Below, piece by piece: positions 4,526 through 64,000 of a stretch of 64,000 bases of DNA. Position 1 is the stretch's first letter; each line of letters opens with the position of its first letter. Source of the DNA: a virus; IMG/VR virus record IMGVR_UViG_3300045988_106519, positions 51,386 through 115,385 of that record. One strand, 5' to 3'. Under the pieces are notes generated by a model. It saw only the letters and a list, made by a program, of their open reading frames with translations, made no database searches and was not told where the DNA came from. The position numbers and the translations under genes were made by a program.

Positions 4526-4563
4526 AGCAATGTTAACTTATGATTGTCGTTTTATGTCATTAA

Positions 4564-4601
4564 CTGCAATAATTTATATCTATTGAATTAATTCTGCAAT
4601 A
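4564..4601. repeat. two direct CTGCAATA copies (4564-4571, 4594-4601)
   Basis: Located between the int start and the tRNA-like core. They share TGCAAT with the 4863-4891 repeats. Confidence 0.4.
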
Positions 4602-4632: not shown

Positions 4633-4707
4633 GTTTCAATAGCTCAGTTGGATTAGAGCAACAGCCTTCTAAGCTGTGGGTCTTGGGTTCGAACCCCAAC
4701 GGAATCA
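4633..4707 (+). tRNA. tRNA-Arg(UCU)-like sequence with a non-pairing 5' acceptor strand; probable attP core, not a functional tRNA
   Basis: D arm GCTC/GAGC, anticodon arm ACAGC-CTTCTAA-GCTGT (anticodon TCT) and T arm TTGGG-TTCGAAC-CCCAA are all intact. The 3' acceptor CGGAATC pairs at only 4/7 positions with the 5' GTTTCAA. Confidence 0.6.
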
Positions 4708-4736
4708 CAACGAAAAAATGCTTCAAATTTGATTGT

Positions 4737-13860: not shown

Positions 13861-13971
13861 ATTTAATCATATTGAGATTTGAAGAGAAGTATTGAGTGTG
13901 ATAGAGTTGTTGCCTATTCTTATTAAACATTTGATACTTCCTTCATATTTCCTTTTTAAAGCTATAAAGAT

Positions 13972-38500: not shown

Positions 38501-41500
38501 ATGGAGAGAGTCCTTTCAGTGAAGAAGAGATAAGCAATCTTCTTTCACAATACTATGCTGCAAACCCAGACTTAGACCAAAGTGAGTATAATTCACAGAA
38601 AGTATTATACACCATTGCACAGAATGCACAGAAGCTACAAGAAGCATCAGAAGCCTTTGACAAGGCAGAAGGTGAGATTCAGAAGATAGAGAAAAATAGA
38701 GGTGAAGCCATAGATCCAGAGGTGAGAACAAAGATGAAAATTCAGCAAGCACTCAATGGACATTGGGAAGAAAGAAAACAAAAAATGCAGTCAGAGATAG
38801 ACGATGCTTCAACAAGTGAGCAAACACATGATGCAAGTACAATCATAGCAAGTGTTGGAGGTATAGACAATGCCAAAGCACTTGTTAAAGTATATGATAA
38901 ACAGAAAGCTGAGATAGAAAAAGAACTTACAGAACAACAGAAAAGAACAAAGACTTTTGATGAAGAATACAAAAATGCAACAGAAGAATTGAACACTGCA
39001 AGAAGTAATGAAGATAGTGAGGCAGTACTTAAAGCAGAGAAAAAACAAAGAGAGACTAAAGCAAGGCTTGATTCATCAAAGGAGCAGGAGAATTATCTTG
39101 AAAGACTTGTTTCAATGACTGAAGACAAGAAGAAATCTTTGGAAGAGAACTTTACAGATGTTAGTGCAAAGATACTAACTGCTGATGAAATATTTGCACT
39201 TGACCCAGTGACAAGGGCAAGGATGGTGAATAAAGATAATAGAGAACTGTATAGCAAAGAACAGCAAAGAGAAATAGAGAAACTTGAGCAGAGGCTTATT
39301 ATGAGAGATGCTGATGCTCTTCAGAAAATACAAGACATAGCACTGTTGACACAAAGAATAGATTCTAATAAGGATGCTTATAGTAGAATGGCACAGAATC
39401 CAGAGGCAGCAGCAGTTTCCTTGGAGGCTCAAAGATTACAGTCAGCTGAAGCTGCATATAAACTGATAGGTCAGAGGAATGCAGAGACTGTTGCAGACTT
39501 TATCAATAAATTTGATGAAGGACTAAAGAACCGTTCTGATATATCTGAAGATAGTAAGAAGAACTATGTATTCAGAACATTAAGAAAACTCAATACAGGA
39601 CTGCTTGATATTATAGATGAAGACTCCATGCTTCCTAAATATCAGCAGCAGGTAGTTGATGCAAAGGAATGGGGTAAAGTTGTTGAGGATATTGTTTCTA
39701 TAATCAGTCAGTCAGACAAGGGAGAAGATTGGCAAAATAATATATTGAAGAATATAGACACAATAGTAGAAAATGCCAACAATAAAGAAGAGATTATGTC
39801 AGCTCTTGAGAAAGTTGTAGATGATACAGAAGGTTCAGAATCATCGAAAGACTTTGAATATATCCTTGATGGTATGAGGAAGTTAGGTTATCTGAGAGAT
39901 GCTACTATTATTGAGAATAGAAAACAAAGGAAGCAACGTGAAGCAGAGGAAGCAAAGAAGAAGGAAGAAGAAAAGAATAAAGTAGATGAGGCTGCAAAGA
40001 ATGCTGCTGAGAAAAAGACTGTTGAAGAGAAGGAGAAGCAACAGAATGAAGAAGGAATGGATATGGGTAGAAAACCAAATAAAAATGATGTTATAAATAG
40101 CACAGAAGATGTAGATATATTTGGTGATGAAAAGCCTTCAGAGGAGCAAAGTAAAGAAGAAGTAGGAGAAAAGCAGAGTGCTACAGCACCTGTTACTCAG
40201 AATATAAGAACTATCTTGAGTGATGGGTCTGGGGATAGGAGTGTTACAGCAGGAGATATGTGGCATGGTACAAAGGGTAATGCTAAGAAAGGAAAGTTCA
40301 CTGTGACAAAGATGGGAGATACTGTAACCTTTGATACAGATGAGAAGAATGATGTGCTGAGTGTTACTTCTGATGAATATGATGTAACTCCTGAGACTAA
40401 GGAGCATGAGGAAAATGCAGTGTTTGAGGCAAGTTCTATGGAGAAAAGAGGTGATGATTGGTATTTTGTTGGTAATTTTGCAGGAACCAAAAATACTACA
40501 GAAGTGAAAGCAAAGAAATCTTTTGACATAGAAAAGGCAATAAAAAGACAGCAGGAATCAAGGGAAGCAGAACTTGCAGCCAAGGGAGTAGATGTTGATA
40601 ATGTGAATGTTGTTGACAATGGGGATAGTGTGCAAGGTAGATCTGAGAATATTGATGAACAGAATAATAACATTACTCCTGATGATAAGGTGATAGAGGT
40701 GTCGGAGATTAATGAAGATGCTGATGAATTGAATGGTATAGGAGAGCATAATATAGAGACAAATGTTAATACTATTAGTGGTAATGCAATGAGTAGATAT
40801 GAGTCTGATCCATTAGCGAAGGATGGTAAACTTGTTAATAAAAAAGGCAAGGATGATAGAAAGCAGATGGATGAATATTATGCTTGGATGGATGCAGCTG
40901 GAATAAAGTTGCAGAATATTATTGACAGAGAACTTGCAAAAATACTAAAGAGAAATCCTAATGCCAAGGTGAAGTTTATGGCAGTGAGACCAGAAAGCAA
41001 TGCTACTAATGATAGCAGTATGCAGAGACACTTAATGCTTGTATTAGACTATGACAATAGTATTAATAAAGGAATTACTGCAATACACAACGATGATAAT
41101 GGTGGAGTGATAGAGAGTCAAGGAAAGAAGTATCTTGTGATAGGAGTTGCTGGTTATAGGAATGGAAACTTTGCGCAACAGTCACTCTATAATGTGTTAT
41201 GGAATCCTATATCTCCTACTTCAAGAAACAGTAAGGGAGAACCATTTGGATTGATGATAAAGCCTAAAAAGGAGTTCTTTGAGACACATCCTAATGAAAG
41301 ATTCTATGTGAATGAGAGTCTAAGTACTGAGATAGTGCCATATTCTTTGATACCAGGGTATATTGTTAAGCAGGGATTGAATGACAGTAATACAGAGTTC
41401 AGGAGTGTAAGAGAACTACTTGCTGACAAGGAGAGAAATCCTATGGGATATGATATGCAAAGTGTAGCATGGGGAATACAAGAATTGACAAAGTTCTTGA

Positions 41501-42867
41501 CTATAGGGGCTTTTGTAGATGATGTAATGGTTCCAAGGAATACTATAAGGAATGCAGGAAGTGCTTTTGTGCTTATGCCAGCAAGTAATGGAAAGATGGT
41601 ACCATCCTACTTGAAAGTGTTGAAGTATAATGAGATGAGAGATGGTGCATTAAAAGACAAAGTAGAAGGATTATTACAAAATGTTGTATCTCCAGACTAT
41701 GCAACAAGGTATCAGGCAGTGATAGATTTGAGTAATATCTTCTATTTTGATAAGGAAGGTGACACCATATTGCTTAGGAAAAACAAAGCAGAGTTATCAT
41801 TGGTGCATGATGGAATAGTGCAGAAGACATTTGTTCTTGACAGTAACTTTGACAGAGCAGAGTTTATGAAGGCAATGGAAGATATGAATCCAAGAATTAA
41901 TATTACTGCAAGAGTACTACAAAGTCAAGAGTTACTTAAAGAGTATGATGAAGTAGGAGCACTTATGACAGATGCAGCAATGTTTGGTACAGCAGGAAGT
42001 TCTTATAGTATTTATGGACTTGATGGTGAAGGCAATATATTGAAACCAAAACAGCCTGTGAATGAAGCTTCTAAGACTACTGTTAATAGTGATTTTAAGA
42101 ATGAGAATAAAAGTCAGGTGATATATAAGCACCAATATTACACTTATAGAGTGGATGATAGAATGTATTATCTTAATGGAGAGCCTGTCACTGATGAAAA
42201 GATGATAAAGCAGTTGGAGTATAACAAGATGATTATAAACAATCAGCTTAGTCCTATCAAGAATGAAGGAGTATGGGAATACTTTATTTTGAAAGAAGGA
42301 GAACATCCAGAGGCTATAAAGGTGAATAGAAATACTAAAGAAGTAAAGGAAGTAAGTGAGGAAAAGGTTAAGGAGATTATTAGTAAGATAGAAGAAGAGA
42401 AAGCCAAGAAGCAGAGAGAAGCTGAGGCACAGAAGCAACTGAAGATAATAAACTCTGAAGATGTAGATATTATAGGAAATTCTGATAATACAAACCTTGT
42501 GATGGATCCAAACACTGGAGAAATGGTTGTAAATAATACTGTTGATGAAACACCTGTTCCCAAAGAAGAAAACAAGAATGAAAACAAAAAAGAAGAAATA
42601 AAGAAAGAATCTAAGAGTGAGAAGAATAATAAGAAGACTGAGAGTAGTGACAATGCTACATCAACACAAACCTTTGCAGAACTTATAGGGAATAAGAAAC
42701 ATAGGATAAGTATAATAAAGTTGGTTAAAGGTAAATGGAAAGATGCTCCAGTTGTTCCTACCCAGCTTGAAAAGTTCTTGAGAGATAGAGATGTGGAGGT
42801 AGATAGTATTGGAACATCAGAGAAAGATATTGATGCTTGGATGAAGACAATAGAAGATTGTAGGTAA
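35506..42867 (+). CDS. giant coiled-coil-rich hypothetical virion/ejection protein (2453 aa)
   Basis: Uninterrupted ORF. It has a Gly/Ala hydrophobic patch (GVGILGKSLSTASKVGKVARGFGKV...GTAGALGIAYAYG), long K/E/Q helical regions, and no DxDxD polymerase motif seen. Confidence 0.4.
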   Translation: MPINKPQGLKGLQGLGGLSKTQYDSFIEKNRNLISQHGYDPTYINNLYSNKQFIDRYGVEKFKAMPNIDMRNAMYKDDVVNTEFSRLYSPFDVDGVRNNNRGLGADFEKYNQLSTDAKLKLMESNYLTPNEFNNKWERHIKEINDRGKVLGQSRAGAFMPLSAVLNAPAAESSTGSASVDFLRGISGDEAGRKLALDKNNRILEKIYNDDVDNAASKFASQVADAYYGSEIATMSDTQVKKAFVQAINGNPRKGDLGIPELASHYGNGTENQITSEMQDFSIDDMRQVLAKKRVYDAYMSPDMAMTALNNDAKRYIRDHQGSVKRFGLFLKDVGISSMSYTADKLNGIAEIYRMGQDAWAEKPIVMVDDKGNILDPKKIKVISDKQGRLHYQDKDGQLHSVHQEQVDYTTLHNMGKNPDGSDIEGAFGVDWMTLNPQYWTRAEQYGTLDDNEQKQYEKLGSSPYKVAYNPNEDSDIMYEAFKMMSFGIADAASQLIPYGVGILGKSLSTASKVGKVARGFGKVLDTTGKMLTAETKIGQVTQGTAGALGIAYAYGRGAFQETLQQNLANAEEAAQTASRNDIYNQYNSDKDYKAGVDKLINARAASMKADYLAKIQKDSNMKVIDKNTLDKMIHARAQEAVLGELVQNRIKERMASKEYADLQQKAIDGAGDAAFNSFLTEGIKYGFVNNFGYRKYLYTNPAGLSKKVSSTFKGLEEITTKEGRQRLTAGASKFLTRDQKLKEFGKTLGSQAWGGAWTNGTDDMQVDAAERINEDSFKRYLDAYQNGEAIADIYGFADGLYSYMKGLSNSMGQETTWNAALVGGLGSIVNFTPNFANIARLATKEGREAYNNNFTRRIVRDENGIPVKNEDGSIKYEDLKRTDNWRERANYFIQNGVLNTYYGKKQSERDLQSHADYVNDLLDSYNDFKDIEGLVASNGASENLESQGDAKTLQFIKALHSINALNRLGENSNDPTTLSSVVQNAKNFIAKASQLNDENGESPFSEEEISNLLSQYYAANPDLDQSEYNSQKVLYTIAQNAQKLQEASEAFDKAEGEIQKIEKNRGEAIDPEVRTKMKIQQALNGHWEERKQKMQSEIDDASTSEQTHDASTIIASVGGIDNAKALVKVYDKQKAEIEKELTEQQKRTKTFDEEYKNATEELNTARSNEDSEAVLKAEKKQRETKARLDSSKEQENYLERLVSMTEDKKKSLEENFTDVSAKILTADEIFALDPVTRARMVNKDNRELYSKEQQREIEKLEQRLIMRDADALQKIQDIALLTQRIDSNKDAYSRMAQNPEAAAVSLEAQRLQSAEAAYKLIGQRNAETVADFINKFDEGLKNRSDISEDSKKNYVFRTLRKLNTGLLDIIDEDSMLPKYQQQVVDAKEWGKVVEDIVSIISQSDKGEDWQNNILKNIDTIVENANNKEEIMSALEKVVDDTEGSESSKDFEYILDGMRKLGYLRDATIIENRKQRKQREAEEAKKKEEEKNKVDEAAKNAAEKKTVEEKEKQQNEEGMDMGRKPNKNDVINSTEDVDIFGDEKPSEEQSKEEVGEKQSATAPVTQNIRTILSDGSGDRSVTAGDMWHGTKGNAKKGKFTVTKMGDTVTFDTDEKNDVLSVTSDEYDVTPETKEHEENAVFEASSMEKRGDDWYFVGNFAGTKNTTEVKAKKSFDIEKAIKRQQESREAELAAKGVDVDNVNVVDNGDSVQGRSENIDEQNNNITPDDKVIEVSEINEDADELNGIGEHNIETNVNTISGNAMSRYESDPLAKDGKLVNKKGKDDRKQMDEYYAWMDAAGIKLQNIIDRELAKILKRNPNAKVKFMAVRPESNATNDSSMQRHLMLVLDYDNSINKGITAIHNDDNGGVIESQGKKYLVIGVAGYRNGNFAQQSLYNVLWNPISPTSRNSKGEPFGLMIKPKKEFFETHPNERFYVNESLSTEIVPYSLIPGYIVKQGLNDSNTEFRSVRELLADKERNPMGYDMQSVAWGIQELTKFLTIGAFVDDVMVPRNTIRNAGSAFVLMPASNGKMVPSYLKVLKYNEMRDGALKDKVEGLLQNVVSPDYATRYQAVIDLSNIFYFDKEGDTILLRKNKAELSLVHDGIVQKTFVLDSNFDRAEFMKAMEDMNPRINITARVLQSQELLKEYDEVGALMTDAAMFGTAGSSYSIYGLDGEGNILKPKQPVNEASKTTVNSDFKNENKSQVIYKHQYYTYRVDDRMYYLNGEPVTDEKMIKQLEYNKMIINNQLSPIKNEGVWEYFILKEGEHPEAIKVNRNTKEVKEVSEEKVKEIISKIEEEKAKKQREAEAQKQLKIINSEDVDIIGNSDNTNLVMDPNTGEMVVNNTVDETPVPKEENKNENKKEEIKKESKSEKNNKKTESSDNATSTQTFAELIGNKKHRISIIKLVKGKWKDAPVVPTQLEKFLRDRDVEVDSIGTSEKDIDAWMKTIEDCR

Positions 42868-51777: not shown

Positions 51778-54168
51778 ATGGCTTATAATGCAATAGGAGG
51801 TTTCCCACCACAACAGCTTTCTTTTAATAAGAAAGGAAAGAAGTGGAGAGCTAAATGTGTAGATTTTGGAGATGACCATAGCTTGATGCACTATCATCTT
51901 ACAAGAAAATCAGTAAGAGCAATGAAAATAAACTATGACTTACTGAATGGAAGAATACACATGGATGACTTAAAAGTTATAGTGAACCCTTATAATATAG
52001 AGGCATCCTTTATACCAGAGAATATACAACACTATCCAGTTATAAATTCAAAACTTGAAGTTCTTAGAGGAGAAGAGTCAAAGAGAACTTTTGACTTTAA
52101 AGTGATTGTGACTAATCCAAATGCTGTGTCAGAGATAGAAGAAGAGAAGAATCTACAAGTAAATGCAATGCTTCAACAGCTTGTGATGGATGGTTCTATG
52201 GATGAGGAAAGCTTTAACAGAGAAATGGAGAAACAGGCAGACTACTTTACTTATGAATACCAAGACAAAAGAGAAGTAAGAGGAAATCTGCTGCTTAATC
52301 ACTATATGAAGGAGCTTGAAATGTCACAACTCTTTAATAAGGGATTTGTAGATGCTTATACCGTAGGAGAAGAAGCTTATATATGTGATATAGTCGGAGG
52401 AGAGCCATACTTGGAAAAGATAAATCCTCTGAAGATGAGAGTAATAAAGTCAGGAGCTTCATCATATATAGAAGATGCAGACATGATAGTGTTGGAAGAC
52501 TATTGGAATCCAGGAAGAGTAATAGATACTTTTTGGGACCAACTATCTAAGAAAGATATTGAAGCATTGGAAAACACAAGAAGTAGTACAGGAAGTAGTC
52601 CTTATGCAGACAGTATGGATAATATAGATAGCAGATATGGTTTTATACCTAATGTAAATTTGTCAACTGCTGGAGATGAAGTTATAGATTCATATAGTTT
52701 GTTTGATAATGAGGATGATACATCTTATCTGCCCTATGACATGAATGGAAATGTAAGAGTATTGAGAGTTTATTGGAAGTCAAGGAGACAGATAAAAAAA
52801 GTGAAAAGTTATGACCCTGAAACAGGAGAAGAAGAATTTAACTTTTATCCTGAGACCTATCACAGTAACCCAGACAAAGGAGAAGAGGAACAGACATTTT
52901 GGATTAATGAGGCATGGGAAGGAACAAAGATTGGAGCAGATATATATGTGAACATGAGACCAAGACCAGTGCAATATAACAGATTGAGCAATCCATCAAG
53001 ATGTCACTTTGGTATTGTGGGAAGTATATATAACCTTAATGGTGATGAACCATATTCATTGGTAGATATAATGAAACCATATTCTTACCTATATGATATA
53101 TTTCATGATAGACTTAATAAAGTACTTGCAAAGAATATGGGAAAGATAGTTAGAATGGACCTTGCAAAAACACCAAAAGGATGGGATGCAGATAAATGGT
53201 TGTATTATATTAATGTGAATGGTGTTTCAGTAGAAGATAGCTTCAAGGAAGGCAGTGTAGGTATGGCAACTGGTAAGCTTGCAGGAGCAATGAACAATGC
53301 TTCATCAGGAGTTATAGATGCTTCTTTGGGTAATGAGATACAACAATACATAAATGTGCTTGAATGGATTTCAACAAAGATAGGAGAGCTTGCTGGAATA
53401 TCAAAGCAGAGAGAAGGACAGATTAGTAATAGAGAGACTGTTGGAGGTGTAGAAAGAGCAACACTACAATCGTCACTCATTACAGAAAGACTCTTCTTTA
53501 CCCATGACAGTGTGAAGAAGAGAGTACTGGAATGTTTCTTGGAGACAGCAAAGATAGCTATAAGAGGCAGGAAGAAGAAGTTTGACTATATATTGAATGA
53601 TGGAAGTAAGAAACTTGTTGAGATAGATGGTGATGAATTTGCAGAGTGTGACTATGGAATAGTAGTGGATAACAGCAATGGTACTATGGAACTTAACCAG
53701 AAACTTGATACACTGGCACAGGCAGCACTTCAGAATCAGTTGCTTGACTTCTCTTCAATAATGAAGCTCTATACTACAACAAGTGTTGCAGAAAAGCAGA
53801 GAATGGTTGAGGCTAATGAGAGAAGGAAGAGGGAAGAAGCATTGCAACAGCAGCAACAGGCACAACAGATGCAGCAAGCACAGTTACAGCAGCAACAGCA
53901 GATTGCACAGATGAAGGCAGAGCAGGAATATAAGATGCACCAAGAAGATAATGAGGTGAAGATATTGGTTGCTCAAATAAATTCTAAGGCTGAAGCTGAT
54001 AGGATGTCTATCATGAATAATGATGCAGCTGATACTGCTACACTTGAAAGAGAAAAACTATCAGAGAATGCAAGACAATTTAATGAAAATCTTGCTCTGC
54101 AAAAGAAGAAGCAAGCTGATGATGTGAGGATTCAAGAGAAAAAAGTGAATGCAGCATTGAAGAAATAA
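51778..54168 (+). CDS. portal protein candidate (796 aa)
   Basis: Size fits. Q-rich C-terminal coiled coil (QQQQQAQQMQQAQLQQQQQIAQMK) like barrel-bearing podovirus portals. Has GISKQREGQ-type loops, an AGGAG RBS, and its own promoter and terminator. Confidence 0.6.
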   Translation: MAYNAIGGFPPQQLSFNKKGKKWRAKCVDFGDDHSLMHYHLTRKSVRAMKINYDLLNGRIHMDDLKVIVNPYNIEASFIPENIQHYPVINSKLEVLRGEESKRTFDFKVIVTNPNAVSEIEEEKNLQVNAMLQQLVMDGSMDEESFNREMEKQADYFTYEYQDKREVRGNLLLNHYMKELEMSQLFNKGFVDAYTVGEEAYICDIVGGEPYLEKINPLKMRVIKSGASSYIEDADMIVLEDYWNPGRVIDTFWDQLSKKDIEALENTRSSTGSSPYADSMDNIDSRYGFIPNVNLSTAGDEVIDSYSLFDNEDDTSYLPYDMNGNVRVLRVYWKSRRQIKKVKSYDPETGEEEFNFYPETYHSNPDKGEEEQTFWINEAWEGTKIGADIYVNMRPRPVQYNRLSNPSRCHFGIVGSIYNLNGDEPYSLVDIMKPYSYLYDIFHDRLNKVLAKNMGKIVRMDLAKTPKGWDADKWLYYINVNGVSVEDSFKEGSVGMATGKLAGAMNNASSGVIDASLGNEIQQYINVLEWISTKIGELAGISKQREGQISNRETVGGVERATLQSSLITERLFFTHDSVKKRVLECFLETAKIAIRGRKKKFDYILNDGSKKLVEIDGDEFAECDYGIVVDNSNGTMELNQKLDTLAQAALQNQLLDFSSIMKLYTTTSVAEKQRMVEANERRKREEALQQQQQAQQMQQAQLQQQQQIAQMKAEQEYKMHQEDNEVKILVAQINSKAEADRMSIMNNDAADTATLEREKLSENARQFNENLALQKKKQADDVRIQEKKVNAALKK

Positions 54169-54172
54169 AAAG

Positions 54173-54188
54173 GTAAAAAGGTAAAAAA
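54173..54188 (+). repeat. two GTAAAAA units (second copy of the 17739 module)
   Basis: GGTAAAAAGGTAAAAAAGAGTTGAGTAGTTAAG aligns with AGTAAAAAAGTAAAAAATAAGGAGTTAAGAAGTTAAA at 17764-17799. Confidence 0.5.
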
Positions 54189-54189
54189 G

Positions 54190-54230
54190 AGTTGAGTAGT
54201 TAAGTAATTCTTAACTACTTGACTATTTTA
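54190..54230 (+). terminator. rho-independent terminator after the portal gene
   Basis: 15-bp stem AGTTGAGTAGTTAAG/CTTAACTACTTGACT (2 mismatches), 5-nt loop, then ATTTTAAATT. Confidence 0.6.
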
Positions 54231-54259
54231 AATTAGATAAAAATTAAATAAAGGAAGAG

Positions 54260-54811
54260 ATGAAGTTAATAAAGATAGAGAATTATTCATTGCAGATTGC
54301 TGATGAGGCACTGTTGATAAGGCCTATAAGGAAACTATACAACCAAGATAGAAGTGCATCGAAAGAACAGTTCTATAAACAGATGTCATATCTTTATTTT
54401 ATGATAGACCCAAGAAGTACTTACTCATATATACTAAATGAGGAAGAGAGAGCTAAAACTATTATAGAACAAGAAGGACTTGACAAGGACTTTAAGCCAT
54501 CACCCTTGTTGCAGGAAGCAATGGAAGTATATAAGAAGCATACAGTGACACCTTCACAGGAGTTGCTTAATGCTGCCCTTGTAGCAGCAAGAACTGTAAG
54601 TACTTTTCTAAAGAATCCAAACATATTGAATGAAGAGGATGATAAAGGAAGACCTAAATATCAAATATCTGCAATAACTACAGCACTGAAGAATGTTGAG
54701 GGAATAGTATCATCATTGCAGAATCTTCAGAGGAAAGTGGAGAGTGAGCTTAGTGAACAAAGTAAAGCAAGAGGAAGTCAGGAGTTGACAATATTTGATG
54801 ATGTAGATTAA
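54260..54811 (+). CDS. hypothetical protein (183 aa)
   Basis: ATG ORF downstream of the portal gene. Confidence 0.6.
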   Translation: MKLIKIENYSLQIADEALLIRPIRKLYNQDRSASKEQFYKQMSYLYFMIDPRSTYSYILNEEERAKTIIEQEGLDKDFKPSPLLQEAMEVYKKHTVTPSQELLNAALVAARTVSTFLKNPNILNEEDDKGRPKYQISAITTALKNVEGIVSSLQNLQRKVESELSEQSKARGSQELTIFDDVD

Positions 54812-54823
54812 ACAATAAAGATT

Positions 54824-55702
54824 ATGAAAGCAGGTAAATTACAATATGATAATGAAGGAAGTCTTGATGTTTCAGATTGGAGTGATTTGTCTATCTCTGA
54901 TAAAGCTGAAATGATGAAGGTTGCTATTGCTAATGGTATTACTACATTACCTGAGATAAGGAGATCTTATAATGAGTTTGCTAAGGGAGGAAAGATGAAT
55001 ACTTCACAAGGATATCGTCCCTCAGACAGTATAAAGAAGAGGATAGCTAATTGGGAGGGAAGCTCTATGAGGACAAATAGAAGTTTTGAGGATGAGGCAA
55101 GAGACTTTAACAGAGTAATTCCTTCTGAGGTGAGAGACAGGTTGACTCAACAACAGAAAGATGCTTTGTATTCTTATGGATATAATGTAGGTATGGGAAG
55201 GTTGAAGGAAAGGGTTGTACCAATACTAACTGCTTATACAGAAGGTAAAGCTTCAAAGGAGGATGTGCAGAGAGCTATGTGGGCTTCAAGAGATAATGAG
55301 CTAAGAGGACTTACTACAAGAAGAAATGCTGAAAGAGAGATGTTCGGAGGAAATTATAGAACCAAGTTTACTGGTACTGGAAAGCTTGGAATACATGTAG
55401 ACCCTTCAGAATATACTATACCATCTAATTACTTCAATAACTTCAATGCAGAGATAACATTACCTCAGATGCAAATGCCTAATGGTATGGATGTAGATCC
55501 AGAGACACTTTATAAAGCTCCTGTTATTGATGAAACATTGTTTGAGAAGTCTGCTGAGCCAATGGAAGAGATTACTTATAATCCTCAAGAGGATAAGATG
55601 GAAGGAATAAGGAGACTTGGAAATGTGCTTGGGATGATGGGGGATAATAGTGTGAATAATTCATTGGGAATATTGGATTATGTAGGAAGGATATATTCAT
55701 AA
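54824..55702 (+). CDS. GH24 (lambda/P22-type) lysozyme-like protein with N- and C-terminal extensions (292 aa)
   Basis: IANWEG (catalytic Glu context), LTQQQKDALYSYGYNVG (compare P22 gp19 LNQNQYDALCSLIFNIG) and GLTTRRNAEREMF (compare LLPRRRRERALF). Confidence 0.55.
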   Translation: MKAGKLQYDNEGSLDVSDWSDLSISDKAEMMKVAIANGITTLPEIRRSYNEFAKGGKMNTSQGYRPSDSIKKRIANWEGSSMRTNRSFEDEARDFNRVIPSEVRDRLTQQQKDALYSYGYNVGMGRLKERVVPILTAYTEGKASKEDVQRAMWASRDNELRGLTTRRNAEREMFGGNYRTKFTGTGKLGIHVDPSEYTIPSNYFNNFNAEITLPQMQMPNGMDVDPETLYKAPVIDETLFEKSAEPMEEITYNPQEDKMEGIRRLGNVLGMMGDNSVNNSLGILDYVGRIYS

Positions 55703-55720
55703 GATAGGTAAATGTTGGAA

Positions 55721-55754
55721 AGAAAAAAGGGAGGTAGTGACACCTCCCTTTCTT
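55721..55754. terminator. bidirectional rho-independent terminator
   Basis: 9-bp stem AAGGGAGGT/ACCTCCCTT. An A-run lies on the left (a U-run for the minus-strand giant gene) and TCTTGTT on the right. Confidence 0.7.
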
Positions 55755-55755
55755 G

Positions 55756-58700
55756 TTAGCAATATTTGTGGAACTCATCAATAGCCTCATCCTCATTGAG
55801 GTCAAGACCTTTGTGCTTAAAGACCTTTTGAAGGAACTTACGGAACATCTTTTCTTTGTCCTTGATTTCCAAAGCAAGTTTTTCAGCACCTTCATGATCA
55901 AGCTTAGGATTCTGAAGCATAATCAAGTCAGCAATAGCAGAAAGATTCTTGACTTCCTCTGTCTTAGTGATGACTGGAGTTTTGACAGATTCTTCAGCAC
56001 TTAACTCTTGATGACTTTCAGTCTTTAAGTCTGTGGCAGACTCCTGTACAGTAGCTGTGATTTTATTCTCAGAAACACTTGAAGTGTCGCTTAAAGGATT
56101 GACAATCTCAGAAGTACTAATCTCAAGATACTCACCATTATTACCAAGAGGTTTTACTCTCTTAAAAGTAAGCTCATTTGGAGAAGAAGTTTCAAGATGC
56201 CAGAGATAAGTCTCCTTACCTACTTTTGTCTTCATGTAGGAGACATCTGTAAGATCAGCTATTTCTTCTGGTCTGTATACTCTAAGTTCACCAGTCTTGA
56301 GATTGACATTATAGTGAGTATCCTTACCACCTTTCCATGGAACAAGTTTAGTGTTATCCCAATTATTGCGGATGAATTGATTAATCACCAACTTAGGAAC
56401 AACAGTAGGGAAGTGTCTATAAGTGTCAACATAAGAAGCACCAGTATTTTCATTCATCAATCTTTCCTTGACATAAGTAGGAACCAATGCCATGAAAGTC
56501 TTAGGAGAAAAACCAATGCCAGCACGGAAGAAACTATAGTCAAACAACATCTTAGAGAGCTTAGGGTCAGCCTTATGAAGGTCAATCCAAGCACTACGAA
56601 GTTCCTCCTTACGCTGTTCATCCATACCAGTGATATTAATTGTAAGATAAGGATGTCCTGTCTTCTTAGAAACATTCATCCTAATGGCTTGAATAAGCTC
56701 ATTATTAGGAAATTCATCCTTGAAGTTCTGCTCCATAAACCACTTAGGGAATGCTGTTGCATAGTCCTTGAGATTCTTAGAGTCAATAACCCCAGACTGT
56801 ACAAGAAGATAAGACTGATAGAAGTTAGAGAACTGGTCAAGTAATTTCTTATCACCATACATCTTGTCAGCAATATCCTTTGGCAACTTAGCAAGCAAGT
56901 TTCTGAATCCAACACTGCCAGCAGGCATGTCAGAGAACAGAGACTTAGCTATATCAACAGTTCTTGCAAACTGCTTCAAGACAGGATGGTCAAAGAATAT
57001 GTCATCAATATCCACAGGAACATCATCAGCAGTGTAGAAGTGAGTACCATTATCAGTATTGGCATCAATAAACTGAGACATTTTGTGCTCAATTATAAGA
57101 TTGTCAATGATGAGTGGACCAACAGCACTGGAGATAGAATTGAATCTTGTAGCATAAGTAGGCTTACGCATAGCATCAGTAAGACTTCTCATCTTTTGGA
57201 AAGCAAGCAGTACTTTATAATCAGTAGCTTCATGCTCCTCAGAAGTAAGACCATTAACAAGTTCCTCAGTAGAAAGAGGTTCAGTGTTGATATTAGAAGA
57301 GTCACTGATATTATACTTCTGACGATAAGTGTCAAGCCACTTATTGATGAGACCATCAAGAGACACATAGTTAGTAAGATTATCCCTATTGAACTGACTA
57401 AGCAGACGCTCTATAACATCCTGAGATAGGAAGAGAGCAGCATCATTGAAAGTCATACCCAATCTCAACATAGTATTAAGCATACCAGCAGTAGTCATAT
57501 TGACATTCATAAGATTGAGGATAGGATCTTTCACAGCATCAGCAGAAGCAGATACAAGAGAACCAAGAGTCTTACCAATAAGAGTACCTTCACGGTCATA
57601 CTTCTGGTCTATCTGCATTCTACCACCAAAGGTAGTGCCAGCAATAGTGAAATCATCATTACCACAAATCTCAGATACATCAAGGAATATGTCATTACTC
57701 TCAAGAGTAGCATGAGCTACTTTATTGACAGCAAACACACCAATCAATGATGCAGCAGCAGAGTTCTGCTTATAGAACTGAACCTGAGTATCAGCAAATG
57801 TAAGGTCTTTGTCAGTATAAGACAACTTCTTGAGTTCATCAATAGACATACCTTGAAGAGCATTCCAAGAGATACCCTTATTAGCAGGATTCTTATAGGC
57901 AGCAACCATGTATCCCATCTTCTTAGGAGCATCAAAGCCACCAGGATTAAGAATCTTGTCAGCAGTCATCTGATTGGTAAGAACAGCATAAGTCATATCA
58001 ATAATCTTGTTATCTCTATATGTTCTACCAAAAGTAGGAGCATCAGTATAGTAAGCAACTTGTTGATATTGACCATAAAGCCATTGCATAAACTTATCAG
58101 TAAACTTCATCTTCTGAGGATTGTCAAGGAACATTCTTACCTGCTCACCAATCCATTGGTTGTTAGTTTTACCATTATGAGCCTTAGCATAACTTTCAGA
58201 AGCTCTCTTAAAGAGTTCATTTTCAATATCCTTCCTTCTTTTAGTCTTAATAGGTATGTCTTTACGCATGACATAACGCTTATCAACATCAAAGTCAGAA
58301 TCATCAATCTCAGTAAGCTCATAAGGAAGCATAATAGCATCACCAGCTTCACGAGGCATAAAACCAACAACCTTCATAGGAGCACAAGAGTACTTATCCT
58401 CAGTAGGAATACGGTAGCTAACCATTTTAAGAAGTTCTGGATCAACAGCATTGATAGCATCAACATTGATAGAACCATCAGCATTAGAGAACTTGTCAAA
58501 AAGTTCATTAGACCATATAGGACAGAACACTTCAAAGTAAGCAATACCACCTTGATTCTTCTTAAGATAGTCTTTATAAGAAAGATCATCATGTTCAGAG
58601 GGAACATACTCCTCCTCAAGAGGAATGAGATTACCCTGCTTATCATTGAATCTAATGTGAAGCTGCTTAGAAGTACCAAAATTAGACACCTGAACAATAG

Positions 58701-61700
58701 GACCACCAGCAATCTTCTGCTTGTTAATTCTGTTCTTAATAACAGAATTTATAAGCTGTTCAATGCGTTTAGCCTGTATAGGGTCACCTTTAGGTATTCT
58801 AAATTCACCAGTCTCCTTATCAATAGAACAAGCCTGTACAAGGTCAATGCCATAACGAGGAGAAGATAAAACTTCTCTTTGAAGAATCTTAGAAAGAGCA
58901 ATATTTCTCTCACGCTTATCCTCACTATTCAAGTGAAGTTCAGCAGAAAGATTATTAATACTCTCTTCAATATTATCAGCAATAGTCTGCTCATACTCCT
59001 TACGGAACTCATCAGCCTTCATTCTCTTGACAGTACCATCAGGTTCAGTCCACTCATAGAAGTTATCCACTTGCTGACCATTCTCATCAATAGTGAAGAG
59101 GTCAAGGTCAGAGGGAGTAATCATTCTAATCTGAGAACCATGAGCCTGAGAATGCTCCTTGAAATGTTCAGGAACCTCCTGCTGAAGACAATAATCTTCA
59201 AAAGAAGTCTCATGTACAAAGGTATTAGTGTTATAGTTCTTATAAATTCTTTCACCTGTAGCATCAGTTTCTTCCTTGAAGATTTGATTCATCATAAAGG
59301 TATAGGCAGCATCCTCACCACCTTCCATATCTCTGAACTGATAGATATTCATCTTGCCTTGAAGACCAGACTTGATGGAAGATTCAAACTGAACAGTATC
59401 AATGCCTTTAGTAGGCATAAGACGTTCAGAGTCTTCCATTACTTTATAGACAGCTCTAAGAAGATTAGGACGAGAAAGCTTTTCACCTTTAAGGATAGCA
59501 TCAGCCATGATAAGAAGATACTCAGCATTCTTAGCTTGGAAAGGTACTTGCATACTGTGAATAGGAGCATTATCTACACCCATATCCTTAGTAAGTTTAG
59601 AATACACAAAAGGCTTGAGAGGCTGGAAAGCAGTCTCAAGGTCAGTATATGTGTATTCACCTTTAAGCATTTTTTGATAAATATCCTCAGCATGACGAGA
59701 CCATTTGCCAAAGATGTAAGCCTTCTTTCTGTAAGAAGAAGGAGAGGAATAGCCTTGAGCATCAGTGACATTAATATTAGTGTACTTACCATCCTTGCCA
59801 ACAAGAGACTCCTTGAGAGCAATCATTGCAGCCTTCTGATTGTCAGGGGCAGCAGCAATTCTGCGGTCAAATACCTCTGTGATATTAGCTATGATGTTAG
59901 ACTTGAAAGAATCAAAGTCTTGCAAGATGAAAGTTCTGTACTTACCATCAGACACTCTATTACCATCATAATCAATAGCGTTAATATTACCTCTGACACC
60001 AGGAGCATGAAGCTGAGCAAGACGTTTCTGCAAATCCTCAGTATCTTTGTAGAAAGCAATGTCAGAGAGAGTGAGTTGAAGAATATTCTTAGATGCAAAA
60101 GAATCATTCCAAAGGAAGTTCTCCACTTGCTTTCTAACCCAATCATTGATTACACCCTCTCTTTCCTCATTCTTTATGTTTGAAGAATTATCAAACTCAG
60201 AAGGATATATGTCCTTAATGTTCTTTGCAGCCTCAAGAATACCATTGCTTTCCCATGTATCAAGGATAGACTGTACTCTGTTCTCCATAGACTGACGGAT
60301 AACCCTTTCAGCAAGCTTACTAAGCTCAACCTCTTCATCAGGAGTAAGATTAATCTCACCATTGACCTTCTTCTGAAGAAGAGAAGCAAACCTATTATTG
60401 TCAGAAGATACAGAGCCATCCTCATTACGGAGAATAGTTCTCTTGGAAACAGCACTCTCTTCAAGATAGCTATTGAATACAGGAAGGAAGTTGAACTTAC
60501 GACCATTAGTATCAAAGTTCTTAATGAATCCAGGGTCATTCTTAGACATGTTTCTTCTAAGGACAGTCTGTATTCTACTAATCTCTTGTAGGAACATGTT
60601 ATGAAGACCATTAACAATAGCATTCTTATAACCGTCACCTCTATAAGAGTAGAACTTGATGAACTCAGAAGAAGGCTTATTAGATTGCATGGGCACTCTA
60701 TACCAAGCAGGAACTCTATCTTCAACTTTTGCACTCTCAGAGAAGTATTCAGTGATGAGAGAAAGAGTATATTCAGCATCACTCATATTGCGCATATAGT
60801 TATGCTTATTGAAGTTAAGCTCAACCTTATGGTCAAACACCTTACGAGCATTCTCATCTCTTGCAAGAAGTCTGAGCCACTCATTACGCCAACCCTTAGT
60901 AATATCACCATCACCAGCACCAAACTTAAACCATTCAGAAGAGCCATACTCATCAAGAATGAAATCCTCAAAAGCCTGACCTTCCTGACGGAACTTGTTA
61001 AAGAGCTTAGTCATGAATGAAGGAGTGACATAAGACTGATACATTTTACCACTATCATAGAAAGCATTGACAGCAGTATCCTCAAGCTTATCAGTAATAG
61101 GAGTGAGGAAGTTTTTCACAGAACCATCAATAGAATACTCACCTTTAAATTTGAAAGGATTGTACTTTTTAAGTTCTCCAGATTCTTGTTTCTGTAAAGC
61201 CTCATTTAAGTCATCTACCATAAACTTAAGATACTTTGTAATCTTGTGAATATTCTCAGCATTGACAACATCAGTAAGCAAGTCTTCAGTGACATTATAT
61301 CCTAAGACCTTACAAACAGCTATGATATTATCAGATGCAACCTTAGACATTTTATCATCAAGAGTATTGCCCTGCTTAATAGACTTATCTATATTCTGAA
61401 GTTCAGACAATGCCTTATGAAGAGTGAAGTCATTGCTAACAGAGTTAGCAGAACCAAGCAACTTAGTGTTAACCTTACCATTAATGCCAAAGAGAGGATG
61501 TTCTCCAATCTTGAATTGAGAAGTGATAGTATTCATCACATCTGTAAGAGCAGGATGACTATTAACAGCTATACTATGATACTTACCATCTTCAAGAAGA
61601 ACAACAGAGTAAGGTTGGAAATGCTTAGAGAACACTCCATAGAATTGGCTTTGGAAGTCAGTTTCACTACCACTCTTGTCAGACAATCTCTGAACAAGCT

Positions 61701-64000
61701 GAGAGAGCCAAGGGTTCTGAGACTGCTTGTCAGAGAGTTTCTTAACCATAGCATCAAGAGATAAGGAGCCTTGAGTCCAACGGAGAATACTATTTACAGC
61801 TTCACGAGGATTAACACGCTCTGCAATACCCCATTTACTCATAACCTTACTACTATCAGCATTAAGAAGATAACACTCATGAATGCCTTGTCTAACAAGA
61901 GCAGACATAGAGTTAAGAACATCAATAGTACGGTTTTCTATCTGCCAATGCTCTTGATCATCCTTCTCACCTTCCTCAGCAGCAATATCCTGGTCATTGG
62001 AATAGTCATTGAAGTTGTCATAGTCAATATAAGAATCACCAGTAGTAGTAAAGTTACCCTTAGAGAAATCCTTAGCAATACCAAAGCCTTCGTTCATAGC
62101 AAAGACATCAGCAGCAAGATACATGATAGCATCCCAGTTGTCAAAGATAAGGTCAGCTTGGAAACTGATACCATTTTCATCATCCTTATAGGAATCCCAG
62201 TTAGCTTCAGTATCAAATATAGACTTAACACTATCAATAAGACGGTTGATACCAACAGCCTCAACAATTTGCTTTCTTGAGGCAGATTGAAAGTCAAGGT
62301 CAGTCTTAAGGGTAGGGAATAGCTTTTCAGCAAGACCCTCTTCCTTTTGAAGCTTTGTTATTGAGTCAGAAATTTCATTGGCCACAAGTTCAGCAGTATG
62401 ACGAATCTCAGATGCAGAAAGATGTTCTATACCAAGTTCATCAAGATGATACACCTCACCATCAGACTCCAAGTCTTGATTGCCAAGAAGATTGTCAATC
62501 TGACGATTAAGTTTATCATACTCATCAAGAGTCTTTTCAACTTGCTTCTTTTCAGAGTTCTTAGACTCTTGAAGATACTCTTTTTCACTTGTAGATTGTA
62601 GAATGTTGTCCATGTGATTAATAATGTTTTGATTATCCTCTATAGAGTTTTCATCAGAGATTTGAGCATCAAGTTCCTTAAGATAAGGAATTTTCCAGGC
62701 AGCATCTACTGGTGTGTCCTCATAGAGGTCATTAAAGTATTCATAACTTGGAAGAAAAACTGTTGAAGGCTCTTCCTTAGTAGAGGTGGGAGGGGTGGTA
62801 GGTTTTGTAGGAGGTGTAGGGACAGTAGGGGTAGTGGGTTGAGTTTCTTTTGAAGGATTATCATAGAAATCTCCATCAATGACGTTGTATTGTCTTTCTC
62901 CATTGACAATCCTTACAAGCACATTCTGAGGCTTCAAGTCTTGTAGGAGATAGTCTTCTGTTTTGTAGGATGTGTTTCCTATGACAGAAGGGTCTTTTTC
63001 AGCATTAAACCTTTCTTTTACAAAAGAATCAATCTCTTCTTGAGAAGCATAAGCACCCTCCATAAAAGGTTGCTCAATAATAATAGAAAACTCATCATCA
63101 CCATTGCCAAAGCCTACAACTTTCATTGCAGTCTCAGGGAACAATGTATTGTGCAGTTCTATAGACCTTAGAGCATCAGAGACAGTATTGTAGCCAGTAA
63201 TACTGCGAGACTTGATAACAGTGTCTTTATCTTTTCTGTATACCCATGCCTCACTGCCATGACCAATTCTACCGCCATACTTCTTCTCTAATTTTGTGTC
63301 TACATTATCTGCCCATTTTCCTTGTTCCTTGGCGAATTTTTCAAGAGATTCTCTGTCTTCTTGGTTTCTTTTGTCGATGTCTTCCTGAGAGAGAACTCCT
63401 TGTTCCTGAGTTTCTCGTAGGTTTCCATCTCCTCTCTGGATTCTGGCTTGTGACTCAGCAAGTAATCCTCCATCGCTTGTCTGTTGTTTTCCTGCAACAG
63501 TTTCTGCATTTCTTGTATTGTTGCTTTCATTGTTTTCTGTTTTATTATTGGAACGTGAATTATCCTCTTTTATTGTAGTATCTTTGTGTAAAGGAGAACC
63601 TTCCTTCTTGACATTGTTAGACACAATGGTAACTGTGTCAGTGGCTCTGGAGACACCTACATATTCAAGCTGTTGCTTGAGATTGATAGTTTGAGTAGGT
63701 GCTGTATGTTTAGTGGGTTCAGTAAAAGATGTAGAGAAATTATTTGAAAATCCCAAATCAACATCTTCTGCATCTCCAGTGAAATTAGCACTTGAAGCTA
63801 CGTTATTATCTACTTCACCAAGGTCAACAACTTCCATAGCATTGTTACTATTAAGACCAGCTCTTGAAATGTCAACATCATCAATAAGAACATTGGTAAA
63901 GGTAGAGCCTTGAGACTTATGAACAGTCATGGCATAGCCAAAGTCAATGGTCTTAGCTTGAAGAAGGTTGTGATTACTGTCCTCAATATTATCGTTGACA
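55756..64000 (-). CDS. giant multidomain protein (>2,747 aa, N-terminus outside the window): SF1 helicase C-terminus + kinase-like core + beta-prime-like single-chain RNA polymerase
   Basis: The frame stays open from 64000 to the stop at 55756. Motifs seen: YAMTVHKSQGSTF / YVGVSRATDTVTIV (helicase); GHGSEAWV..VIK..DLKPQNVLV..DGDF (kinase-like); SYRIPTEDKYS...GDAIMLPYELTEIDDSDFDVDKRY (DPBB with DxDxD). Confidence 0.65.
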   Translation of the reverse strand, partial: VNDNIEDSNHNLLQAKTIDFGYAMTVHKSQGSTFTNVLIDDVDISRAGLNSNNAMEVVDLGEVDNNVASSANFTGDAEDVDLGFSNNFSTSFTEPTKHTAPTQTINLKQQLEYVGVSRATDTVTIVSNNVKKEGSPLHKDTTIKEDNSRSNNKTENNESNNTRNAETVAGKQQTSDGGLLAESQARIQRGDGNLRETQEQGVLSQEDIDKRNQEDRESLEKFAKEQGKWADNVDTKLEKKYGGRIGHGSEAWVYRKDKDTVIKSRSITGYNTVSDALRSIELHNTLFPETAMKVVGFGNGDDEFSIIIEQPFMEGAYASQEEIDSFVKERFNAEKDPSVIGNTSYKTEDYLLQDLKPQNVLVRIVNGERQYNVIDGDFYDNPSKETQPTTPTVPTPPTKPTTPPTSTKEEPSTVFLPSYEYFNDLYEDTPVDAAWKIPYLKELDAQISDENSIEDNQNIINHMDNILQSTSEKEYLQESKNSEKKQVEKTLDEYDKLNRQIDNLLGNQDLESDGEVYHLDELGIEHLSASEIRHTAELVANEISDSITKLQKEEGLAEKLFPTLKTDLDFQSASRKQIVEAVGINRLIDSVKSIFDTEANWDSYKDDENGISFQADLIFDNWDAIMYLAADVFAMNEGFGIAKDFSKGNFTTTGDSYIDYDNFNDYSNDQDIAAEEGEKDDQEHWQIENRTIDVLNSMSALVRQGIHECYLLNADSSKVMSKWGIAERVNPREAVNSILRWTQGSLSLDAMVKKLSDKQSQNPWLSQLVQRLSDKSGSETDFQSQFYGVFSKHFQPYSVVLLEDGKYHSIAVNSHPALTDVMNTITSQFKIGEHPLFGINGKVNTKLLGSANSVSNDFTLHKALSELQNIDKSIKQGNTLDDKMSKVASDNIIAVCKVLGYNVTEDLLTDVVNAENIHKITKYLKFMVDDLNEALQKQESGELKKYNPFKFKGEYSIDGSVKNFLTPITDKLEDTAVNAFYDSGKMYQSYVTPSFMTKLFNKFRQEGQAFEDFILDEYGSSEWFKFGAGDGDITKGWRNEWLRLLARDENARKVFDHKVELNFNKHNYMRNMSDAEYTLSLITEYFSESAKVEDRVPAWYRVPMQSNKPSSEFIKFYSYRGDGYKNAIVNGLHNMFLQEISRIQTVLRRNMSKNDPGFIKNFDTNGRKFNFLPVFNSYLEESAVSKRTILRNEDGSVSSDNNRFASLLQKKVNGEINLTPDEEVELSKLAERVIRQSMENRVQSILDTWESNGILEAAKNIKDIYPSEFDNSSNIKNEEREGVINDWVRKQVENFLWNDSFASKNILQLTLSDIAFYKDTEDLQKRLAQLHAPGVRGNINAIDYDGNRVSDGKYRTFILQDFDSFKSNIIANITEVFDRRIAAAPDNQKAAMIALKESLVGKDGKYTNINVTDAQGYSSPSSYRKKAYIFGKWSRHAEDIYQKMLKGEYTYTDLETAFQPLKPFVYSKLTKDMGVDNAPIHSMQVPFQAKNAEYLLIMADAILKGEKLSRPNLLRAVYKVMEDSERLMPTKGIDTVQFESSIKSGLQGKMNIYQFRDMEGGEDAAYTFMMNQIFKEETDATGERIYKNYNTNTFVHETSFEDYCLQQEVPEHFKEHSQAHGSQIRMITPSDLDLFTIDENGQQVDNFYEWTEPDGTVKRMKADEFRKEYEQTIADNIEESINNLSAELHLNSEDKRERNIALSKILQREVLSSPRYGIDLVQACSIDKETGEFRIPKGDPIQAKRIEQLINSVIKNRINKQKIAGGPIVQVSNFGTSKQLHIRFNDKQGNLIPLEEEYVPSEHDDLSYKDYLKKNQGGIAYFEVFCPIWSNELFDKFSNADGSINVDAINAVDPELLKMVSYRIPTEDKYSCAPMKVVGFMPREAGDAIMLPYELTEIDDSDFDVDKRYVMRKDIPIKTKRRKDIENELFKRASESYAKAHNGKTNNQWIGEQVRMFLDNPQKMKFTDKFMQWLYGQYQQVAYYTDAPTFGRTYRDNKIIDMTYAVLTNQMTADKILNPGGFDAPKKMGYMVAAYKNPANKGISWNALQGMSIDELKKLSYTDKDLTFADTQVQFYKQNSAAASLIGVFAVNKVAHATLESNDIFLDVSEICGNDDFTIAGTTFGGRMQIDQKYDREGTLIGKTLGSLVSASADAVKDPILNLMNVNMTTAGMLNTMLRLGMTFNDAALFLSQDVIERLLSQFNRDNLTNYVSLDGLINKWLDTYRQKYNISDSSNINTEPLSTEELVNGLTSEEHEATDYKVLLAFQKMRSLTDAMRKPTYATRFNSISSAVGPLIIDNLIIEHKMSQFIDANTDNGTHFYTADDVPVDIDDIFFDHPVLKQFARTVDIAKSLFSDMPAGSVGFRNLLAKLPKDIADKMYGDKKLLDQFSNFYQSYLLVQSGVIDSKNLKDYATAFPKWFMEQNFKDEFPNNELIQAIRMNVSKKTGHPYLTINITGMDEQRKEELRSAWIDLHKADPKLSKMLFDYSFFRAGIGFSPKTFMALVPTYVKERLMNENTGASYVDTYRHFPTVVPKLVINQFIRNNWDNTKLVPWKGGKDTHYNVNLKTGELRVYRPEEIADLTDVSYMKTKVGKETYLWHLETSSPNELTFKRVKPLGNNGEYLEISTSEIVNPLSDTSSVSENKITATVQESATDLKTESHQELSAEESVKTPVITKTEEVKNLSAIADLIMLQNPKLDHEGAEKLALEIKDKEKMFRKFLQKVFKHKGLDLNEDEAIDEFHKYC

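Follow-up and report, generated by a model that had tools for sequence, protein, structure and literature searches.

One end of a 64,000-nucleotide (nt) stretch of viral DNA, positions 51,386 to 115,385 of IMG/VR record IMGVR_UViG_3300045988_106519 (hereafter the window), is occupied by a single giant open reading frame (ORF) on the minus strand. Its product is a phage polyprotein in which a helicase, a kinase and an RNA polymerase (RNAP) are joined in one chain. Translated, 55756-63999 (-) comprises 2,747 sense codons closed by a stop, with zero internal stops and the frame open at the window edge; counted from the first Met, the same frame is listed as 55756-63930, 2,724 amino acids (aa). 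The G+C content is ~38%, at which a random frame is expected to hit a stop every ~15-20 codons, so an open frame of 8.2 kb cannot be chance. The features of the ORF are the following.

55756-63999 (-): giant ORF, window part; aa 1070-3816 of a 3,816-aa ORF; stop codon at 55756-55758
63595-63999 (-): C-terminal end of an SF1B (Dda/RecD/Pif1-like) helicase, matching UvrD_C_2 and PHROG_325; holds YAMTVHKSQGSTF and YVGVSRATDTVTIV
63898-63936 (-): YAMTVHKSQGSTF, helicase motif, window aa 22-34
63664-63861 (-): low-complexity insert in the helicase C-terminal end, between YAMTVHKSQGSTF and the terminal YVGVSRATDTVTIV
63622-63663 (-): YVGVSRATDTVTIV, terminal helicase motif, window aa 113-126
62863-63363 (-): Kinase-PolyVal, second copy in the full protein, from Pfam PF18762, invariant columns and fold model
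63244-63264 (-): kinase copy 2, G-loop GHGSEAW
63202-63222 (-): kinase copy 2, VIK lysine
63136-63159 (-): kinase copy 2, HN
63064-63081 (-): kinase copy 2, EQP
62920-62943 (-): kinase copy 2, catalytic loop DLKPQN
62863-62883 (-): kinase copy 2, DGD with the metal-binding Asp
62782-62841 (-): QPTTPTVPTPPTKPTTPPTS, Pro/Thr linker at the kinase-polymerase joint, window aa 387-406; at a cassette-swap junction in relatives
55759-62784 (-): crAss-type single-chain virion RNA polymerase module, ~2,340 aa, colinear with phi14:2 gp66
62683-62754 (-): LPSYEYFNDLYEDTPVDAAWKIPY, conserved start of the polymerase module
59722-59778 (-): NINVTDAQGYSSPSSYRKK, aligned to gp66 ~968-1030, just ahead of the gp66 Connector (1095-1238)
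58282-58296 (-): DFDVD, catalytic metal-binding motif of a predicted beta-prime-like double-psi beta-barrel, window aa 1902-1906; aligned to gp66 DFDID

The N-terminal 1,069 aa of the giant ORF fall outside the window edge. An IMG/VR search for exact DNA copies of the window end gave no match, and the parent contig was recovered through a protein look-up of the convergent lysozyme neighbour. It is ENA ERZ27296277 contig k119_163732 (L005; 115,405 bp), which agrees with the window over the whole overlap (19,177 of 19,177 bases). The gene call on this contig is 3,816 aa, of which 3,314 codons were read in L005, all of them open. The L005 opening, RIAIHN, sits at aa 502-503 of two relatives that are 95-96% identical (P0016 and P0017), in exact agreement with the 502 aa missing at the N-terminus; this first part of the protein was taken from the relatives. 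Pfam assignments on the 3,816-aa gene call are, in order, Kinase-PolyVal, PIF1/AAA_19/AAA_30, UvrD_C_2 and a second Kinase-PolyVal. Weak Pfam matches on the whole ORF (Blo-t-5, RA_2 and Sigma70_r1_2; E 0.008-0.09) were disregarded as spurious.

That an assembly chimera or a sequencing error joined separate genes is hardly credible. Metagenome assemblies of mosaic regions can be chimeric, and the contigs of some relatives carry frameshifts or single stops at various points. However, a second assembly (L006, a Logan assembly of SRR1930122) is 100% identical across window 52998-63831, and two assemblies from different software agree exactly through the helicase-kinase-RNAP junctions. Both flanks of each junction are ~95% DNA-identical to relatives and in frame. 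Dozens of independent clusters share this architecture, and in P0001, independently, the helicase C-terminus and the kinase lie within one ORF. On the agreement of the two assemblies, the in-frame flanks and the recurrence in independent clusters, an assembly chimera was rejected.

Modules of the polyprotein

The helicase part within the window matches Pfam UvrD_C_2 (3.3e-7) and PHROG_325, annotated as Dda-like helicase (2.2e-13). The rest of the motor lies upstream in L005, where Walker A (SGYAGTGKTS), Walker B (IIDEASM) and motif III (VGDSAQLAPV) complete a full SF1 core. Against PDB sequences this core matches T4 Dda (3UPU, 2.3e-10), RecD2 (3E1S, 2.9e-4) and 9KWF (1.1e-17). Walker A, Walker B, motif III, HKSQG and the arginine of VSRAT are invariant in 11 fused homologues of 39-62% identity. 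With T4 Dda and Deinococcus RecD2 the module shares the sequence of the motor core, all SF1 motifs being present. Dda and RecD2 are free-standing proteins of ~450-570 aa, whereas the helicase here lies inside a larger chain and has a long low-complexity insert ahead of the final strand.

The kinase that follows the helicase matches Pfam PF18762 over aa 213-379 (profile positions 2-157 of 160) at 1.5e-27 and 97 bits, the cut-off being 27. Across homologues 24-70% identical, the invariant columns are G..E of GSE, the Lys of VIK, HN, EQ, the Asp and Asn of DLKPQN and the Asp of DGD. The Kinase-PolyVal clade, as described by Iyer et al. 2017 (PMC5512222), keeps the residues for ATP binding and phosphotransfer and has lost the C-lobe; it has a clade-specific Glu near strand 2 and a Gln in the N-lobe's final strand, and it occurs mainly in polyvalent proteins of Bacteroidetes and Verrucomicrobia phages. 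The residue pattern of the second kinase copy matches that description. The domain stops ~8 aa ahead of the Pro/Thr linker.

A profile search with the kinase alignment against PDB sequences gave matches at chance level only, and a fold search was therefore needed. The AlphaFold model of the kinase has a predicted local distance difference test (pLDDT) score of 84.6 and a predicted template-modelling (TM) score (pTM) of 0.82. The top 50 PDB matches of this model in Foldseek are all protein kinases (prob 0.82-1.0), with weak E-values of ~1.5e-3. When normalised to the target, the best matches are the minimal effector kinases NleH1/2, with a TM of 0.47-0.49. A first kinase copy is placed upstream of the helicase by the Pfam list of the gene call and by the relatives P0016 and P0017.

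Kinase-PolyVal genes 53-59% identical to the phage cassette were also seen at two other loci (L002, 10001-11938; L004, 1385-3568). There they sit amid ordinary bacterial genes such as SusC/SusD, GcpE and the glycine cleavage system, with InPase, ART-PolyVal or zincin-like parts joined to them, which suggests that the phage and host-resident elements have exchanged such genes.

The polymerase begins directly after the Pro/Thr linker; the alignment offsets place no unexplained extra domain between them. A phmmer search of PDB sequences gave a sole match, phi14:2 gp66 (6VR4; E 3e-18), in three colinear stretches in which query residues 927-1030, 1405-1466 and 1672-2526 correspond to gp66 496-598, 968-1030 and 1164-1997. 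SDFDVDKRYVM here pairs with SDFDIDKMYVM of gp66, where DFDID at 1361-1365 is catalytic and Ala substitution of any of the three Asp abolishes activity. The aspartates of DFDVD are at least 90% conserved among the 11 fused homologues. Judged by alignment, the putative two-barrel module covers gp66 regions on either side of the Connector, and NINVTDAQGYSSPSSYRKK is predicted to be part of the first (beta-like) barrel. The two polymerases are alike in homology over the whole module, in the aligned DFDxD, in being a single chain and in coming from a Crassvirales genome. They differ in that gp66, of 2,180 aa, stands alone, whereas here ~1,475 aa of putative peptidase, kinase and helicase precede the polymerase in one ORF. 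Identity to gp66 is low, and even the nearest named phage RNAP, that of cr116_1, is only ~50% identical.

The N-terminal region, as described here, is that of P0016 and P0017. In both, MGC(I/V)NKSSKEFK opens the sequence; an HExxH motif (ILHELLHALS) comes later, EFVAEL lies downstream of it, and the first kinase is next. HExxH and the downstream EF..E are conserved in fused homologues. A model of the first 368 aa has a pLDDT of 71.5, and its best fold match is anthrax lethal factor, with a prob of 0.99 but a weak E of 8e-3; Pfam SprT-like is matched at only 0.0075. A zincin metallopeptidase is probably present upstream of kinase copy 1. The opening ~120-aa module (MxCVNxSSKEFKxL...; P0016 aa 1-120) was seen to head giant proteins whatever follows it. 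It matches no Pfam family, and it could be a packaging or ejection signal.

The initial annotation of the window had proposed an uninterrupted minus-strand frame of more than 2,747 codons from the edge to 55756. It described a RecD/Pif1-type helicase C-terminus whose core had to lie beyond the window, a protein-kinase-like core, and ~2,300 aa containing a beta-prime-like barrel with DFDVD. The frame is borne out by its translation and by L005 and L006. Extending the contig, which it had proposed as a check, located the helicase core upstream, and the kinase and the polymerase proved to be what it had taken them for. The protein is, however, larger than was thought, with 3,816 aa, a second kinase and probably a zincin peptidase.

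Recurrence of the fusion and the cassette site

When 1.84 billion cluster representatives were searched exhaustively in HMMER, with the polymerase module's N-terminal half as query, 757 homologues came up. Architectures were counted in the best 150 of these 757 RNAP-homologue representatives, the clusters being defined at 50% identity. An N-terminal extension of more than 300 aa precedes the polymerase in 113 of the 150, in some cases reaching ~4,000 aa, and the ~120-aa module stands at the start in 75. A homologous SF1 helicase lies upstream of the polymerase in the same chain in 26, and both helicase and Kinase-PolyVal are present in six: P0142 (93% identical, 4,120 aa), P0147, P0148, P0150, P0154 and P0166. 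Pfam analysis of the 11 fused homologues found the helicase in 11/11 and the kinase in 5/11, with ART-PolyVal, NADAR, DUF1848, Zeta_toxin and PD-(D/E)XK seen once each. Because the ATPase motifs are invariant and the DFDVD aspartates conserved in these 11 homologues, the modules are argued to be functional.

Close relatives differ from the window between helicase and polymerase. Window 62782-63600 is a site of cassette exchange relative to L001, L007, L009 and L010: the flanks are ~95% DNA-identical and the contents differ. The swapped cassettes include kinase, SLOG-like, NADAR, GNAT-like and zincin-fragment domains, often with Pro/Thr linkers at the joints. The arrangements are as follows.

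Window: helicase, kinase 2, Pro/Thr linker, RNAP
L009: helicase, SLOG-like domain, frameshift, kinase 2, NADAR, RNAP
L010, L011 and L012: helicase remnant, SLOG-like domain, kinase stub, NADAR, RNAP; one TAG where a Gln is conserved, on each of three separate contigs
L001: helicase ORF ending with another domain and a stop; separate RNAP ORF with a zincin fragment and its own Pro/Thr linker
L007: helicase, GNAT-like domain and RNAP; a 3,807-codon frame open but for one TGA at a conserved Trp

Two observations were made on these contigs in addition. The in-frame stops fall at conserved residues, the TGA of L007 at a Trp (9057-9059) and the TAG of L010 at a Gln (codon 974 of the gene at 4565), and L010, L011 and L012 have an identical TAG although they are separate contigs. 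Recoding or regulated read-through, and not error, is the suggested cause. L010 lacks the first two-thirds of the helicase polyprotein, counted from the N-terminus, which is replaced at 3400-4560 by unrelated sequence of a different amino-acid flavour, the ORF starting with the helicase C-terminal remnant.

These arrangements bear on the main alternative origin, possible though not likely, in which a stop and a spacer were lost between a neighbouring helicase and RNAP. The fusion would then have no joint function, and the product would be cleaved, or its helicase half would serve replication and only its polymerase half be packaged. The gene order in relatives fits such an origin, since it runs Thy1 ... 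PolA ... helicase and then RNAP on one strand. In L001 the helicase and RNAP ORFs are separate and ~260 nt apart, and in L009 and P0016 a frameshift lies between helicase and polymerase. An SF1 helicase is listed in the crAss-like replication block, and the zincin-like domain of the 95%-identical relatives is a possible cutter. Yet the fusion is found in 26 of the 150 clusters, with all catalytic motifs conserved, and the opposite order occurs in cr50_1, a phage of a different family; together these point to a repeated, retained association rather than a single accident. In addition, the helicase protein starts with the same ~120-aa module that heads RNAP polyproteins lacking a helicase. Since close relatives separate the helicase from the polymerase, covalent linkage is not essential: the fusion is frequent, not obligatory.

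Genomic setting and related proteins

The window belongs to a gut phage that, from its sequence, is a Steigviridae-like member of the Crassvirales. The plus strand encodes TerL, the major capsid protein and the portal (PHROG matches) and a lysozyme. TerL is 53% identical to that of uncultured phage cr116_1 (Crassvirales, Steigviridae), the closest among GenBank phages, and every one of the best matches to TerL and to the RNAP comes from the Crassvirales. The giant gene stands last on its strand and is convergent with the lysis and virion block, which ends with the following neighbour.

54824-55702 (+): phage lysozyme (PF00959), convergent neighbour at the end of the virion/lysis strand

A terminator and promoter scan of the convergent junction (55500-56000) gave nothing above the shuffled expectation. 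The initial annotation had pointed out that the gene sits opposite the virion genes and outside the tail block. The location is correct, but it is no oddity: cr116_1, L007, L008 and L009 have the gene in the same place, after Thy1, PolA and small ORFs, so this strand is normal for the lineage, and the idea that the opposite-strand position is unusual was rejected.

Elsewhere in the window, an integrase-like ORF at 3341-4525 (-) (PHROG_1, 4.8e-15) adjoins the only tRNA, a tRNA-Arg(tct) at 4633-4708 (+), and this crAss-like phage may therefore integrate. Two giant ORFs at 31412-35308 and 35506-42867 (+), of 1,298 and 2,453 aa, have no PHROG match. Both have homologues in cr116_1, gp_24131 and gp_24132, and in that phage these flank the RNAP; here the two ORFs lie ~13-20 kb from the RNAP on the other strand, and the block has thus been rearranged.

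The closest GenBank relative of the protein is gp_24128/gp_24130 of cr116_1 (MT774389; Steigviridae, Pamirivirus). Its RNAP is preceded by 1,116 aa that include a polyvalent-type domain, ART-PolyVal, and shares both the ~120-aa N-terminal module and the site at the end of the replication strand. The extension is without helicase or kinase, and the RNAP is annotated only as a hypothetical protein. The cr116_1 RNAP gene (in L003) was also seen to be split inside DFD/VDK by an insert of ~840 nt (13828-14667) that carries the ORF gp_24129 and resembles a mobile intron placed within the active-site sequence.

The second relative, QOR58058.1 of cr50_1 (MT774375; Suoliviridae), is a 4,774-aa ORF that combines an RNAP catalytic region (DFDID at aa 3154) with a homologous SF1 helicase (1.3e-62). 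Here the order is reversed, the helicase being C-terminal at aa 4217-4694, and the family is different; a local search found no kinase in it.

4826-19150 of L014: cr50_1 RNAP-helicase gene, annotated as DNA helicase

No closer copy was found in deposited phages. A megablast search of the ORF against GenBank phages gave zero matches, as did a tblastn search of the first 466 window aa against phages at 1e-5; from the latter, no deposited phage has a close copy of the kinase or of the junction.

The polyvalent proteins of Iyer et al. resemble this protein in that many enzymatic effector domains are carried by one phage polypeptide. At least five enzymatic modules are present here, and SLOG-like, NADAR, GNAT-like, ART, peptidase and helicase cassettes vary among the relatives. 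That paper (PMC5512222) describes polyvalent proteins with kinases and helicases, and an ADP-ribosyltransferase (ART) fused to N4-like virion RNAPs. The array here is attached to a gp66-type polymerase; term searches of PMC5512222 did not find a crAss-type two-barrel RNAP as a module.

N4 gp50 and the tape-measure-fused RNAP of P23-45 are likewise giant ejected polymerases with extra domains in the same chain. However, N4 gp50 is a T7-like single-subunit enzyme, the partner in P23-45 is a structural tape measure and not a set of enzymes, and neither has sequence homology to the fusion partners here. Drobysheva et al. identify gp65 as a zincin and report that gp65, gp66 and gp67 are fused as one polyprotein in some phages, and a review notes that crAss RNAP genes reach ~6,000 aa.

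The general idea, effector domains on virion RNAPs and crAss RNAP polyproteins, is already published. Literature on crAss or Crassvirales with polyvalent, helicase, kinase or vRNAP yielded no description of a helicase-kinase-RNAP protein. The initial annotation, which knew of no described fusion of this kind, agrees with these literature searches, but any claim of rarity made from this single window would be wrong because the fusion is widespread: it recurs in metagenomic Crassvirales, and GenBank holds related fusions that had gone unremarked. The helicase-kinase-RNAP protein appears undescribed though common in metagenomes.

A probable virion polymerase with an effector array

The architecture, the integrity of the catalytic motifs in helicase, both kinases and polymerase, the recurrence and the swapping of cassettes are observed directly in these genomes. 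We interpret the giant gene, with a probability of about 60%, as the virion RNAP gene of a crAss-like phage whose 5' end has been extended by a polyvalent-effector array, giving a polypeptide of 3,816 aa. From N- to C-terminus this would consist of the ~120-aa module, the zincin-like metallopeptidase, Kinase-PolyVal 1, the Dda/RecD-like SF1B helicase, Kinase-PolyVal 2, the Pro/Thr linker and the gp66-type RNAP. The phi14:2 enzyme, gp66, is a virion-packaged polymerase of early genes. By analogy with gp66, with the crAss001 cargo proteins and with the polyvalent-protein hypothesis, we infer that the polyprotein is packaged, ejected and possibly cleaved. It would be made in the middle or late phase of infection, packaged as capsid cargo and ejected into a Bacteroidota host with the DNA. 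The ejected polymerase would then transcribe the early genes, and the fused enzymes would be active right from the onset of infection: the kinases would modify host proteins, the helicase would act on the incoming DNA or strip proteins from it, and the zincin domain could possibly cut the polyprotein into its parts.

Several points weigh against this interpretation. First, the presence in the virion or the ejection of the protein, and of its N-terminal half, is argued from homology to gp66. Second, the helicase may act in replication rather than in entry, since the SF1 helicase is counted among the replication genes of crAss-like phages. Third, the fold evidence for the zincin is weak (pLDDT 71.5, E 8e-3), and for this contig both the zincin and the first kinase are assigned through relatives and the gene call's Pfam list. 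Fourth, in relatives 88-96% identical (L001, L009, P0016, L007 and L010-12) helicase and polymerase are split by ORF, frameshift or stop.

One conceivable use for the helicase is that a tethered 5'-3' SF1B motor would open the entering double-stranded DNA and supply a single-stranded template for transcription by the virion enzyme. The published account of gp66 has the enzyme transcribing single-stranded or denatured DNA in vitro, and apparently these templates only; the helicase is Dda/RecD2-like, with ATPase motifs invariant in all fused homologues, and the RNAP-helicase linkage arose in both orders. Yet most crAss-like RNAPs, including gp66 and crAss001 gp47, are without a fused helicase, close relatives tolerate separation of the two, and ~270 aa of kinase and linker stand between the two modules here. 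Such direct supply of template is distinctly unlikely. A wider version, in which the helicase is the working partner of the virion RNAP, unwinding or clearing the entering genome for early transcription, and the kinases, injected along with it, serve as effectors to reprogram or disarm the host, we put forward tentatively, as an unlikely possibility prompted by the repeated linkage. If true, the protein would be a self-contained, injected, 'helicase-primed' transcription machine, and would offer one explanation of how virion polymerases of the crAss type reach their template.

Read as an effector-extended virion polymerase, the protein extends the 'polyvalent protein' idea to two-barrel virion RNAPs, and cassettes are exchanged with particular frequency in the stretch that separates helicase from polymerase. 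Two GenBank annotations need correction: the 'DNA helicase' of cr50_1 is an RNAP plus helicase, and the RNAP of cr116_1 is labelled hypothetical. CrAss-like phages dominate the human gut virome. In the clade described here, the polymerase is linked to an intact 5'-3' helicase, kinases and a putative peptidase, which are candidates for its missing helper activities and for injected anti-host effectors.

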